Assembly (NCBI GenBank): GCA_902500125.1
Contig: GCA_902500125.1_4132.1
Source of the DNA: Escherichia coli
GTDB taxonomy: Bacteria; Pseudomonadota; Gammaproteobacteria; Enterobacterales; Enterobacteriaceae
DNA: 64,000 nucleotides
Reading direction: 5' to 3' (one strand)
Part shown: piece after piece, positions 7,464-14,577 of the stretch
How the letters are laid out: every line of letters begins with the position of its first letter
How positions within the stretch are numbered: position 1 is the stretch's first letter
Notes under the pieces: model-generated
Seen by the model: the letters and a program-made list of their open reading frames with translations, nothing else
Told to the model about the DNA's origin: nothing
Databases searched by the model: none
Position numbers and translations under genes: made by a program

Positions 7464-7638
7464 GACATTTGATGAGTGGTTTAATCTACACTATAATATA
7501 AATGCAGCAGATATATACTATTTTAAGCTTGAATTGTATATATCATTGCGTAACCCAATTGAGTACTATAACAACATTATCAATTGTGATGATTTTGGTA
7601 CATATTTTAGTATAGCCGTTATGGATATTAAGAGATGA
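7453..7638 (+). CDS. hypothetical small protein
   Basis: track ORF; overlaps neighbours. Confidence 0.4.
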   Translation: MQPKTFDEWFNLHYNINAADIYYFKLELYISLRNPIEYYNNIINCDDFGTYFSIAVMDIKR

Positions 7639-7814
7639 CACATGAAGAATGGATGGCAATGATGAAAAAACGTTATGACCAGTTTGGAAATGGATTTATT
7701 GATGGTCATTTCGATATTTTACGAGACAAATATAAGTTCGAATCATATGTACTAGATGAGAATGGAAATCGTTGGTTCATCTATGAGCTTGCGGTTAGAG
7801 ACAAAAAAATATAA
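7635..7814 (+). CDS. MTHEEWM-family mini-protein (59 aa)
   Basis: own translation from ATG overlapping upstream stop; MTHEEWMAMMKKRYDQFGNG..; paralogous to 7893, 8412, 9400, 9561, 9722. Confidence 0.55.
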   Translation: MTHEEWMAMMKKRYDQFGNGFIDGHFDILRDKYKFESYVLDENGNRWFIYELAVRDKKI

Positions 7815-7892
7815 TAACCTTTTCCATTGTCCATTGCAATGCTTTCTTTACAGAAGAATAAATGAAACACTTAATTGAACTGGATACATAAA

Positions 7893-8069
7893 ATGACACA
7901 TGAAGAATGGATAGAGTCACTAAAATATAAACATGATCATTTTGGATTTGGTATACGCCAAGGCCATTATGATGTTTTGAACGATAAAAAAACGTTCGAA
8001 TCATTGGTTTTGGACGAAGATTCCAACCACTGGTTCATCTACGAGCTTGCTATTAGAGATAAAAAATAG
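7893..8069 (+). CDS. MTHEEWM-family mini-protein
   Basis: track ORF 7875..8069 trimmed to conserved MTHEEW start. Confidence 0.55.
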   Translation: MTHEEWIESLKYKHDHFGFGIRQGHYDVLNDKKTFESLVLDEDSNHWFIYELAIRDKK

Positions 8070-8074
8070 TAAGA

Positions 8075-8410
<336 letters not shown>

Positions 8411-8411
8411 A

Positions 8412-8594
8412 ATGACACACGAAGAATGGATGTCCAAACAGCATAAAGAACATGACTGCTTTGGGAATGGCATTCGTCAGGTACATTATGATATATTAAG
8501 AGATGAAAATCTTTTCAGGTCATATGTTTTGGATACCAGAAAACCCTGGTTTATATGCGAACTGGCATTTAGAAAGTCAAATAATCAAAACTAA
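8412..8594 (+). CDS. MTHEEWM-family mini-protein
   Basis: track ORF 8394..8594 trimmed to MTHEEW start; upstream DNA near-identical to that before 7893. Confidence 0.55.
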   Translation: MTHEEWMSKQHKEHDCFGNGIRQVHYDILRDENLFRSYVLDTRKPWFICELAFRKSNNQN

Positions 8595-9172: not shown

Positions 9173-9288
<116 letters not shown>

Positions 9289-9399: not shown

Positions 9400-9560
<161 letters not shown>

Positions 9561-9564
<4 letters not shown>

Positions 9565-9721
9565 CACATGAAGAATGGATGAATGACATTAATTTTAGAT
9601 ATTCGGGTATCGGTAGATGGCTAAAGTATCATTGGGAATTCATTTCAGAGCCACATATGTATGATAAACTTATCAACGATCCAGCATATGAAATGTACTT
9701 AATTGAACTACTGGTACGAAT

Positions 9722-9725
<4 letters not shown>
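9561..9725 (+). CDS. MTHEEWM-family mini-protein (54 aa)
   Basis: own translation; ATGA overlap with previous paralog; near-duplicate of 9400. Confidence 0.5.
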
Positions 9726-9894
<169 letters not shown>

Positions 9895-9897
9895 AAG

Positions 9898-10311
<414 letters not shown>

Positions 10312-10368
10312 CTAAATAATTCAGTACTGAGGATATTAATATGTTTAAAGATGAACGTCCAGATTTGT

Positions 10369-10406
<38 letters not shown>

Positions 10407-10414
10407 GAATTCCA

Positions 10415-10750
10415 CAATCAGACGTATATGGTGTAAGTTACGTCGATGCAATCCAGAACAAGATCTCTGGTACTCTAGGAAGTGGTGAATGTTAACCTAG
10501 ACGGGTTTGATAATTGGACGATAGGCAATTATTACTTGACTAGCAGGTTTAAACTAGAGGTGACAGTCCTTCATCAAACTGGAAAACCGGATGGACTTTT
10601 ATTTAAAAGGGTAAGGCGTGGAAATATGTTTACAGAAGTTGCTTTTAGTAGCCTGTACGCCCCACGTCAAGGTAGCCGAAAGGTAAGTTAAAACGGGTGG
10701 TTATAAAGCTGAATTGACAGCGACGTTTAAAAGCGTCACCATCCATTTTT
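10415..10750 (+). ncRNA. candidate structured ncRNA of unknown class
   Basis: ~330 nt between promoter and T8 run; GC-richer than flanks; GNRA-like CCGAAAGG hairpin; only ORF has no convincing start. Confidence 0.35.
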
Positions 10751-10769
10751 TTTAATTAAAGTTGGTGAT

Positions 10770-11159
<390 letters not shown>

Positions 11160-11184
11160 TTTTCAGTACTGATATAATTAATTT

Positions 11185-11428: not shown

Positions 11429-11733
11429 GGGCCATTAGCTCACGGTGGTTAGAGCAAACGACTCATCGACAATGGTGACTTTCATCAGTAATGGTGATTG
11501 AAAAACTGGATGAATTCAGGGAAATCTTAACACGTAATGGTGATGACAATCCTGAGCCAAGCCCAATAAGCGTATTGGGAAGGTGCAGAGACTAGATGGT
11601 ACAGTACGATCTTACTGTGTAATACATCATTAGCGTCCGGCATCCCTATGGGATGATGATATAGTCCGTACTATAGTGAAAACTATAGATTATACGAATC
11701 GTTAGGTACTGTGTTCGACTCACAGATGGCTCA
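11429..11733 (+). tRNA. tRNA with CAT anticodon (Met or Ile2) interrupted by group I intron
   Basis: 5' half GGGCCAT-TA-GCTC..GAGC-A-AACGA-CTCAT; 3' half AA-TCGTT-AGGTA-CTGTG-TTCGACT-CACAG-ATGGCTC-A; all four stems pair only after removing ~230 nt from the anticodon loop. Confidence 0.7.
11467..11696 (+). ncRNA. group I intron in tRNA anticodon loop (no ORF)
   Basis: follows exon U, ends in G; core-like elements AATTCAGGGAAA (P), AATCCTGAGC (Q), CAGAGACTA (R), GATATAGTCC (S) with complementary P4/P7 strands. Confidence 0.65.
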
Positions 11734-11752: not shown

Positions 11753-12457
11753 ATGAAAATAAAATTAGAATATCCATACAGTAATGATTGGGAGAATGGG
11801 TATATACAGATAAACCCTGAAGGTAGAAGAACTGTAATACTTTATAATTCTCCAACTGATAGAAGCAGTACTCAATATGCCAGATATCTATTAGCAGTAC
11901 AAGAAGGTAGATATTTAACTGAGTCTGAAGAAGCAGACCACATTGATAATGATTTCACAAATGATGATTTGTCAAATTTGCAAATACTTCATGTTGATGA
12001 ACATCGTTATAAAACACATAAGAATGGTGTGCAAGCACGATATGATTCATTTGTATGTGCTTGTTGTAATATGGAATTTACCCGTAGGCATACTAAAGTG
12101 AAATCATATACAAAATATTGTAGTGTTGAGTGTTCACAAAAAATGGTCAAGCCTCCTTCTAATACAAAGGGTGGTGAAACATCTGTTGATTATGAAAAGG
12201 TAAAAGAATATATTAACCAAGGTTTATTAGATACTGAAATTGCTAAAATAATGAATATTAGTTCAGGTTCAGTACTGAATTATAGAACCAAAAATAATAT
12301 ACCATCTAAGAAATTTGCAAACGTAAAACGTTTAGAAGATAACATAGAAGATATCAAACAACGTTTGAATAATGGTGAGAAAAAAGTTAGTATATATGAA
12401 AGTTATGGTGCTTCCAAAAATGTGTTTGCTAGATTTTTGAAAAGACATGGCTTATAA
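11753..12457 (+). CDS. HNH homing endonuclease-like protein
   Basis: track ORF; EADHIDNDFTNDDLSNLQILHVDEHRYKTH HNH-type motif plus Cys-rich KYCSVECS; immediately downstream of intron-containing tRNA. Confidence 0.65.
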   Translation: MKIKLEYPYSNDWENGYIQINPEGRRTVILYNSPTDRSSTQYARYLLAVQEGRYLTESEEADHIDNDFTNDDLSNLQILHVDEHRYKTHKNGVQARYDSFVCACCNMEFTRRHTKVKSYTKYCSVECSQKMVKPPSNTKGGETSVDYEKVKEYINQGLLDTEIAKIMNISSGSVLNYRTKNNIPSKKFANVKRLEDNIEDIKQRLNNGEKKVSIYESYGASKNVFARFLKRHGL

Positions 12458-14045: not shown

Positions 14046-14116
14046 GGTTGATTAGTTAAATGGTATAACACGGATCTTGTAAGTCTGAGTCATTAGTTCG
14101 ATTCTAATATTGACCA
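14046..14116 (+). tRNA. tRNA-Thr (anticodon TGT)
   Basis: acceptor GGTTGAT/ATTGACC (two G-U), D-stem GTTA/TAAC, anticodon stem CGGAT/GTCTG with loop CTTGTAA, T-arm ATTAG-TTCGATT-CTAAT. Confidence 0.65.
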
Positions 14117-14181
14117 CAAATATATTCTTAGAAATAACATTTTTCTTGAAAATAAATACTCCATACTATATGGAGAACTAT

Positions 14182-14577
14182 ATGAAAGAAAAACGTTATT
14201 GTGCATGTTGTAAAATTGAATTGGTTCGAAAGGGTCAAACAAAATATTGTAGTGTTGCATGTCAACAAGAGCTACAATATCAACAGAAAGTTGATAAATG
14301 GCTTAACGGTGAACATCCAGGATATAAAGGTATTACTATACAGTTATGTCCATTTGTGAGAAGATATCTACATGAAACACGCGGAACTGCATGTGAAGAG
14401 TGTGGATGGGATAAACGTCATCCAACAGATGGTGCAGTACTGACAGAAGTTGAGCACATTGATGGTGATGCTACAAATAATGACCTACCAAATTTAAAAA
14501 TCCTTTGCCCTAATTGTCATTCGATGACACCAACATTCAGAGCAAGGAACAAGAACTCCGCAAGGAATCGTAAATAA
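14182..14577 (+). CDS. HNH endonuclease
   Basis: track ORF 14110..14577 trimmed to ATG after GGAGA RBS; Cys-rich N-terminus and EVEHIDGDATNNDLPNLKILCPNCH HNH motif. Confidence 0.7.
   Translation: MKEKRYCACCKIELVRKGQTKYCSVACQQELQYQQKVDKWLNGEHPGYKGITIQLCPFVRRYLHETRGTACEECGWDKRHPTDGAVLTEVEHIDGDATNNDLPNLKILCPNCHSMTPTFRARNKNSARNRK

Follow-up and report, generated by a model that had tools for sequence, protein, structure and literature searches.

Comparison of related phage genomes indicates that positions 10409–10744 of the DNA analysed here hold two separable non-coding RNA modules, which we call A and B, and not one RNA. The DNA is a stretch of 64,000 nt from Escherichia coli assembly GCA_902500125.1 (contig GCA_902500125.1_4132.1), referred to below as the window, and its source is an Asteriusvirus-like jumbo phage which BLAST assigns to the PBECO4/121Q/Salmonella SD-1_S14 group (about 350 kb, 97–99% identity). 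Both modules sit inside a cluster of tRNA genes and have the same orientation as these. Module A, a pseudoknotted RNA of 188 nt, founds a new family of structured RNAs; the kind of element to which it belongs is known but unexplained. We consider it likely, with a probability of about 0.75, that A and B are two independent non-coding RNAs which are co-transcribed early up to a run of eight U, are stable and act in trans, as functional counterparts of the species 1 and 2 RNAs of phage T4.

The main features are as follows.

10378–10406, plus strand: early promoter of the sigma-70 type (TTGACT, 17-nt spacer with CAGTACTG, TG-n-TAAAAT)
10409–10596, plus strand: module A, 188-nt pseudoknotted RNA, from covariance model R1 and the comparative fold
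10597–10610, plus strand: AU-rich spacer between A and B, a possible processing site
10611–10744, plus strand: module B, 134 nt, with a bulged 5' stem, a GNRA hairpin and a tRNA-like mini-domain
10746–10753, plus strand: run of eight U, one base past the closing stem of the mini-domain, a probable transcription stop
10482–10691, plus strand: open reading frame (ORF) of 69 amino acids with a GTG start, across the A/B junction, judged spurious

The initial annotation had placed here a single structured RNA of about 330 nt within the tRNA cluster. Its structured and non-coding character is borne out, since covariation backs the fold and the only ORF is destroyed in almost all homologues; its unity is not, as the two modules are found apart in relatives. 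The higher GC content that it described is also present, with 0.395–0.42 within 10400–10700 and 0.25–0.33 in the flanks.

Two modules and an open reading frame

The arrangement of the modules differs among the relatives. In JNE01 (Asteriusvirus) the promoter is followed directly by module B, without module A. Module A without module B was found in Bragavirus, Novosibvirus, Aeromonas phages and contig L008. A promoter or an additional RNA unit separates A from B in two metagenomic relatives as well as in Klebsiella phages K64-1 and RaK2. The promoter of the window stands directly 5' of module B in JNE01 and directly 5' of module A in contig L014 (JACCDR011713278.1). In the window, C10596 and the spacer form an AU inverted repeat, CUUUUA-UU-UAAAAG, and an equivalent AU palindrome occurs 3' of module A in K64-1, L014 and L015, where a promoter comes next.

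The ORF at 10482–10691 had been suspected from the outset of lacking a convincing start. It begins with GTG, and this GTG is the 3' strand of a module A pseudoknot (PKa, below). Because 13 of the 14 homologues have stops or a frameshift in this frame, we conclude from the alignment that the ORF is spurious and not a gene. At least one stop was seen in every reading frame of every homologue. The variable columns at codon positions 1, 2 and 3 numbered 24 of 39, 17 of 38 and 27 of 38, respectively, without an excess at the third position, and no Pfam match was obtained for the product. The junction spanned by the ORF is interrupted by a promoter in K64-1. When the conservation of the frame was compared with that of the base pairing, the frame was not kept and the substitutions were compensatory in helices. 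The label "hypothetical protein" that the ORF bears in several GenBank records of these phages (g488 in fEgEco12) is thus a spurious annotation.

Fold and spread of module A

The comparative evidence supports a fold of module A with seven helices and two to three pseudoknots that would fix both ends of the RNA. All elements are on the plus strand.

10417–19/10445–47 and 10422–26/10439–43, plus strand: helix P1
10453–57/10466–70, plus strand: helix P2
10474–79/10496–501, plus strand: helix P3
10510–16/10526–32, plus strand: helix P4
10534–38/10544–48, plus strand: helix P5
10559–63/10571–75, plus strand: helix P6
10554–57/10579–82, plus strand: helix P7
10412–15/10482–85, plus strand: pseudoknot PKa, 5' end with the P3 loop
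10566–69/10593–96, plus strand: pseudoknot PKb, P6 loop with the 3' end
10540–43/10554–57, plus strand: alternative pseudoknot PKc, CUAG of the P5 loop with CUAG

The helices were read from an alignment of 15 distinct sequences and then verified in three ways. In the model-based alignment 91.5% of the cells were paired, compared with 30–37% when the 3' partners were slid. Compensatory changes were found at 22 pairs (3–8 in the slid controls), and the covariation score was 0.362, against at most 0.11 in the controls; the observed values were reached in 0 of 500 shuffles, which is a control and not a probability. In addition, all column pairs were scanned without bias for runs that are antiparallel, stay paired and vary, which placed the same helices at the top and gave nothing else of note. 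In particular, the scan yielded no long-range partner with covariation support for the P1 loop (GGYG) or for J3/4 (ACGGG).

Exchanges of both strands can be followed helix by helix. In P3, UCUAGG/CCUAGA is replaced by CCUAUA/UAUAGG, CCUGAA/UUCAGG or CUAAGUC/GACUUAG; in P4, AUAAUUG/CAAUUAU by GGUAGU/ACUACC or UCGGAG/UUCCGA; in P5, ACUUG/CAGGU by CAUUG/CAGUG or AGUUG/CAGCU; and in P6, GGUGA/UCACC by GGUAA/UUACC, GGUUA/UAACC or GGUCU/AGACC. The two pseudoknots at the ends covary as well. PKa changes from CCAC/GUGG to GCAC/GUGC in Aeromonas phages and to CUACA/UGUAG in L008, and PKb from GUCC/GGAC to ACCC/GGGU, GCCC/GGGC or AUCC/GGAU. PKc is paired in 100% of the sequences and competes with P7 for 10554–57. 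In Ceceduovirus all three segments involved are altered together (CAAG, CUUG, CAAC), a change compatible with alternative conformers as well as with some more complex arrangement.

P5 contains an invariant U-G pair; read from the opposite strand, this and the other G-U pairs would turn into A-C mismatches. Since they are valid on the plus strand only, the structure is assigned to that strand. The unpaired segments ACGGGWUUG, GACGAUA, UUGAC..GCAG, GAGGU and the 3' tail are invariant. The default RNAalifold run recovered the fold of module A in part only. The z-scores of the minimum free energy (MFE) were -1.43 for the whole stretch, -0.68 for module A and -3.06 for module B, of which only the last is significant, and because the scores apart from that of module B are unconvincing, the support for the structure is comparative and not energetic.

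Copies of module A are 85–91% identical among Asteriusvirus, Bragavirus (Straboviridae) and Novosibvirus (Demerecviridae), and about 72–82% identical to those of the Aeromonas phages and contig L008. The T4-like Bragavirus members are Proteus phages PM2 and Pm5461, Morganella phage Mm5 and Shigella phage SdyM_006, and the T5-like Novosibvirus members are Proteus phages 1, 2 and M4H10_20. Weaker matches were obtained in the T4-like Aeromonas phages 65, ZPAH1, AP1, CC2 and others, and in one 120-kb IMG/VR contig. Module A always belongs to a tRNA cluster and is oriented like its tRNAs; it abuts the CCA end of the upstream tRNA. It occupies a gap that is otherwise unannotated, often exactly filling the space between two tRNA genes: tRNA-Gly and tRNA-Asp in Bragavirus, tRNA-Leu and tRNA-Ser in Novosibvirus. 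In AP1 it is directly 3' of tRNA-Pro. Homing-endonuclease genes adjoin the cassette: the window has HNH ORFs, and SdyM_006 a gene resembling segD.

Covariance model R1 for module A scored the window at 214.6 bits and gave 15 matches in total, at 128–217 bits; family members were all that it matched in 139 kb of related loci, among them the T4 tRNA region, and in 0.94 Mb of loci from IMG/VR. A loose pattern applied to IMG/VR matched at least 120 loci, nearly all of them by chance; the first 100 were scored with R1 and the last 17 were not, and among these 100 only the already known L112 matched. No homologue was found in 5,426 complete E. coli genomes or in the PLSDB plasmids, so the RNA is not of host origin. 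The conserved-core pattern was also scanned against one genome for each of 185,579 prokaryotic species. The single match, in a GC-rich bacterial metagenome-assembled genome, was judged to be due to chance since similarity in the surroundings was absent. The RNA was described in none of the literature that we searched. As the Rfam searches (below) were likewise empty, the family is, as far as the searched literature and tools show, phage-specific and undescribed. On this distribution we conclude that module A moves as a cassette among the tRNA clusters of otherwise unrelated large lytic phages of Enterobacterales and Aeromonas. The identity of 85–91% across unrelated backbones, together with the adjacent homing endonucleases, points to mobilisation of the cassette and suggests a benefit that is independent of the backbone.

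Some further observations concern the relatives. A module-A-like domain in Kuravirus XT18, which has GGACGAUAU and CAGAUGGA in common with the family, was rejected, as R1 run unfiltered gave 4.8 bits. In Aeromonas phage 65 (L005, 2580–2669) and in L017–L019, two more conserved hairpin units stand between module A and tRNA-Thr; one is GGTTGAT...ATCAACCA, which is acceptor-stem-like, and the other GGATATAATCA...TGATTATATTCC. Phage 65 has an annotated coding sequence, 65p135, that overlaps module A in its 5' part; this annotation is probably spurious.

Module B, the promoter and neighbouring genes

Module B consists of a 5' domain, a short hairpin and a 3' mini-domain.

10611–10661, plus strand: 5' domain with S1, bulge, S2 and S3
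10615–19/10657–61, plus strand: helix S1
10620–31, plus strand: 12-nt bulge GGAAAUAUGUUU
10632–35/10653–56, plus strand: helix S2
10638–42/10648–52, plus strand: helix S3
GGCGUGG with CCACGUC (10662–68), plus strand: alternative S1, used by the MFE fold
10675–10684, plus strand: GNRA hairpin S4, GCC-GAAA-GGU, from the sequence and the six-copy alignment
10695–10744, plus strand: 3' mini-domain of three helices, from an eight-copy comparison
10695–701/10738–44, plus strand: acceptor-like closing stem of the mini-domain, 7 bp
10708–11/10718–21, plus strand: hairpin H1, 4 bp, with the invariant loop AAUUGA
10722–26/10733–37, plus strand: T-arm-like hairpin H2, 5 bp, stacking directly on the closing stem

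Six full-length copies of module B were compared. It was found that 98% of the cells were paired and that five pairs were compensatory; S1 and S3 are among the helices with such changes. For S1 there are two possible 3' partners, ACGCC and CCACGUC, that exclude each other, and both are compensated in L014 and XT18. The MFE fold of module B mostly agrees with the comparative structure. The GNRA-type hairpin seen in the initial annotation is indeed present as S4; its three stem pairs form in all six full copies, the third being G-C or G-U, and the hairpin is likewise found in a second copy in phage EJP2. The 5' domain alone occurs also in the Kuravirus phages XT18 and 1-6af.

The mini-domain behaves as a repeated module. 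It stands alone after a tRNA in L015, between tRNA-Ser and tRNA-Arg in EJP2, and 5' of module A in K64-1 and RaK2. Among eight distinct copies, 96.9% of the cells were paired and six pairs were compensatory. It normally precedes a U-rich tract, which is U8, AAAUUUU or UAUUUU. In the window the eight T reported earlier are present, located at 10746–10753, three bases to the right of the positions 10743–10750 first given. A simple terminator scan made no call at this site, where the 7-bp closing stem is followed by A and U8; the scan ignores three-helix junctions, and the site was missed because the structure upstream is such a junction and not a plain hairpin.

Two other structured regions were noticed in relatives. 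In Kuravirus XT18 (L006, 2013–2803), and also in L147, about 790 nt are free of ORFs and densely structured; this region includes the 5' domain of module B, ends in a tRNA-like T-arm followed by ACCA and had no Rfam match. In L014, on the minus strand and between its modules A and B, there is one more candidate RNA, a promoter-driven unit of about 170 nt with a long-range closing stem of 14 bp (GGTGAGTAACATTG ... CAATGTTACTCACC); this window lacks it.

A consensus promoter at about 10378–10406 had been proposed, and the consensus scan agreed with it, matching 10 of 12 consensus positions and an extended -10 with an upstream TG. A 23-nt block of this promoter, CTTGACTAAATAGTTCAGTACTG, is repeated at 9898 and 10307, with 0 repeats expected by chance. 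A close variant at 11150–11178 ends 7 nt before tRNA-Ser 11185, which suggests that promoters of this type drive stable-RNA genes. We also noticed that the four sites 9899–9926, 10308–10336, 10378–10406 and 11150–11178 have a common, phage-specific architecture of TTGAC, a spacer with CAGTACTG and TAnAAT. The copy at 10308 has a degenerate -10, and that at 11150 has a predicted transcription start at about the first base of tRNA-Ser.

The other features of the cluster are listed below.

Starts 8097, 9199, 11185, 12466 and 14046, plus strand: tRNA genes of the window called by ARAGORN
7635–7814, 7875–8069, 8394–8594, 9400–9564, 9561–9725 and 9722–9886, from the ORF list: small ORFs with the motif MTHEEW(M/I)

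The six small ORFs (54–66 amino acids) carry this motif at or near the N-terminus and are partly in tandem and interleaved with tRNA genes. A tRNA(CAU) gene at 11429–11733 is interrupted in its anticodon loop by a group I intron of about 230 nt (about 11467–11696; Rfam Intron_gpI, 99 bits). ARAGORN did not call the unspliced gene, and excision of 11467–11696 in silico gave a perfect 76-nt cloverleaf of tRNA-Met(cat). Directly after this gene is an ORF of 234 amino acids (11753–12457), probably an HNH-type endonuclease. Another ORF, 14110–14577, with zinc-ribbon and HNH-type motifs, starts inside the 3' end of tRNA-Thr 14046–14117 and raises the density of homing-endonuclease-like genes in the cluster. 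Directly 3' of tRNA-Ser 9199–9288, the segment 9293–9371 is a borderline match to the tRNA model (29.3 bits, equal to the gathering threshold) on which ARAGORN was silent; it looks like an aberrant tRNA-Arg(UCU)-like gene. The equivalent slot in phage EJP2 holds a mini-domain of the module B type and then a normal tRNA-Arg.

Comparison with known RNAs and possible function

No family of Rfam 15 matched the stretch, which is consistent with an undescribed RNA. At the gathering threshold, the 4227 models found only tRNAs and the group I intron elsewhere in the window, and a permissive scan of 10250–10850 (E ≤ 10) gave only noise at 10–17 bits. Neither ARAGORN nor the Rfam tRNA model called a tRNA within 10409–10753.

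The closest parallel is offered by the species 1 and 2 RNAs of T4 (rnaC and rnaD). Like the modules described here, these are small RNAs inside a phage tRNA cluster, on the tRNA strand and flanked by tRNAs. They are stable and directly abut tRNAs, and in the T4-like Bragavirus and in the T5-like phages module A takes the equivalent slot between tRNA genes. Their function was described as unknown in 2025 (PMC12685909). The initial annotation had suggested such an analogue, and the tRNA-cluster context agrees with this; homology, however, was not found by the covariance models, as R1 had no match in the T4 tRNA region and R2, the model of module B, had none at E ≤ 10 in rnaC or five diverged rnaC homologues. 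An alignment of these homologues showed that rnaC is tRNA-like throughout, its 5' and 3' ends pairing in an acceptor-like stem of 7 bp with covariation (CGAUUCG/CGUUUCG, CGGUCCG/CGGACUG), next to which stands a canonical T-arm, GUUCGAAUC. Module A, in contrast, has no tRNA-like feature and holds its ends in pseudoknots, and in module B the acceptor-like stem encloses the last 50 nt only and the T-type loop is non-canonical. The string GGAAAUAU(C/G)UUU...AAG...AGUAGC, common to rnaC and module B, was rejected as a sign of homology. We regard the GGAAAUAU.UUU match as chance because this stretch is a variable hairpin loop among the rnaC homologues, and R2 misses rnaC and all five of them.

ROOL and GOLLD are structured RNAs associated with phages and prophages, often adjoining tRNA genes and of unknown biochemical function. 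They are about 500–800 nt long, occur mainly in Firmicutes and environmental phages, and both are in Rfam. They are thus about 3–4 times larger than the modules here, neither of which matched them. The group I intron in tRNA(CAU) (11467–11696) is also a structured RNA of the same cluster and also lies beside a homing-endonuclease-type ORF, but module A has no Intron_gpI match at E ≤ 10 and is located between complete tRNA genes, not inside one. The mini-domain, with its 7-bp stem and a 5-bp hairpin stacked on the 3' strand, resembles the acceptor/T-arm minihelix of tRNA, the substrate geometry of RNase P and the CCA-adding enzyme. It can be compared with processing or protective modules such as the tRNA-like domain of YrlA, mascRNA-type elements and acceptor/T-arm minihelices. 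In contrast to tRNA, it has no anticodon arm, its T-type loop is of 6 and not 7 nt and lacks the UUCRA consensus, and most copies do not encode CCA.

In the reading that we prefer, host RNA polymerase would make a transcript of A and B from the early sigma-70-type promoter, ending at U8, and the two would be parted by cleavage in the AU spacer. In versions embedded among tRNAs, the release may be due to RNase P, RNase E and the 3' trimming of neighbouring tRNAs. The 5' end of module A would be locked into the P3 loop and its 3' end into the P6 loop. Exonucleases would be blocked in A by the pseudoknots burying these termini and in B by its 3'-terminal tRNA-like mini-domain, so that the RNAs could accumulate. 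The invariant unpaired segments of A may serve as a surface that binds, or acts catalytically on, a factor conserved in both Enterobacterales and Aeromonas. Both RNAs would act in trans, early in infection, on a protein or RNA factor conserved across gamma-proteobacterial hosts.

Several points weigh against this reading. Only 2 bases separate the end of the -10 hexamer (10406) from the start of module A (10409), and a start 7–8 nt downstream of the -10 would cut into the 5' strand of PKa; a canonical start would thus leave PKa with 2–4 pairs. The MFE of module A is no better than that of shuffled sequence, and its MFE fold differs from the covariation fold. The covariation of module A is carried by about six independent lineages, and in the divergent alignment rows P2 and P4 are out of register, so that their counts understate the pairing. 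The fold is provisional in part: P7 cannot form together with PKc although each has support, and the same applies to the two S1 pairings of module B. Finally, the transcript ends, the processing and the stability of both RNAs are all inferred, and the partner proposed in trans is hypothetical.

It is possible, if unlikely, that the elements act in cis, the mini-domain and U-run serving as a structured terminator or 3'-end protector, or else as a leader for the gene at 10770. The mini-domain consistently precedes a U-rich tract and often closes a unit, even directly after a tRNA in L015, and module B is just 5' of an ORF in the window, JNE01 and K64-1. On the other hand, module A in K64-1 and tRNA-Arg in EJP2 come after a mini-domain with no promoter between, and the invariant loops UAUAAA and AAUUGA exceed what a terminator requires. 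An action in cis would also leave module A unexplained, which lies between tRNAs without a downstream ORF.

We give a somewhat smaller chance to the idea that module A is a new class with an activity of its own, either a ribozyme or a decoy or inhibitor of a host factor of tRNA metabolism or anti-phage defence. As a ribozyme it could, for example, process itself or the flanking tRNAs. If this were true, the triple-compensated segments CUAG, CUAG and CUGG (PKc versus P7) would be a conformational switch, and the spread by homing-endonuclease mobilisation would follow from module A working independently of the phage backbone.

That 10409–10744 is a single functional RNA of about 335 nt we consider improbable. 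This phage and its close relatives have no promoter between A and B, so that a joint primary transcript is likely, and the end of A (GGAUGG) could conceivably base-pair with that of B (CCAUCC). However, CCAUCC covaries with the local GGGUGG of the mini-domain, each module exists without the other, and a promoter or another RNA unit separates them in K64-1, L014 and L015.

Very improbable, in our judgement, is the view of module B as a bacterial Y RNA (YrlA-like), in which a Ro60-binding motif is joined to a tRNA-like module. YrlA has the motif GNCGAAN0-1G and a tRNA-like domain and is present in some phages (PMC4201824), and GCCGAAAG at 10675–10682 fits the motif. This short motif is all that fits: there is no Rfam match at E ≤ 10, the order of the modules differs, and the mini-domain loops AAUUGA and YUWAMA are without the near-invariant sequences of the tRNA-like T-loop and D-loop. 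Moreover, a few percent of 134-nt sequences should contain a motif with 6 specified bases by chance. No TROVE/Ro60 gene, which for YrlA would be looked for within about 4 kb and on the same strand, turned up, although none was searched for, and the neighbouring ORFs are annotated only as hypothetical. We rejected the assignment as unsupported.

Even less can be said for conservation of a DNA-level element, such as a homing-endonuclease target, recombination site or replication signal. Homing-endonuclease genes are adjacent and horizontal transfer is clear, but the 22 compensatory pairs include two pseudoknots, the G-U pairs are valid on one strand only, the orientation is always that of the tRNAs and a promoter is directly upstream. 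There is next to no chance that the ORF at 10482–10691, or another small ORF, is a real gene conserved at the protein level, as its 69 uninterrupted codons in the window and its entries in GenBank stand against interrupted frames in the homologues, the absence of third-position bias and of a Pfam match, the GTG start, a junction that is split in relatives and substitutions that are compensatory within helices.

As counterparts of the T4 species 1 and 2 RNAs, the two modules would extend a kind of element that is known but unexplained, and module A would be its second, unrelated and structurally more elaborate case. It is strongly constrained and at the same time mobile between phage families, and hence of interest. 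With its 188 nt, well-defined fold and invariant unpaired segments, and its presence in culturable coliphages, it should be experimentally tractable. Near-identical copies in jumbo, T4-like and T5-like phages of differing families and hosts suggest that module A has a portable, backbone-independent function, which may be directed at a conserved target in gamma-proteobacteria.

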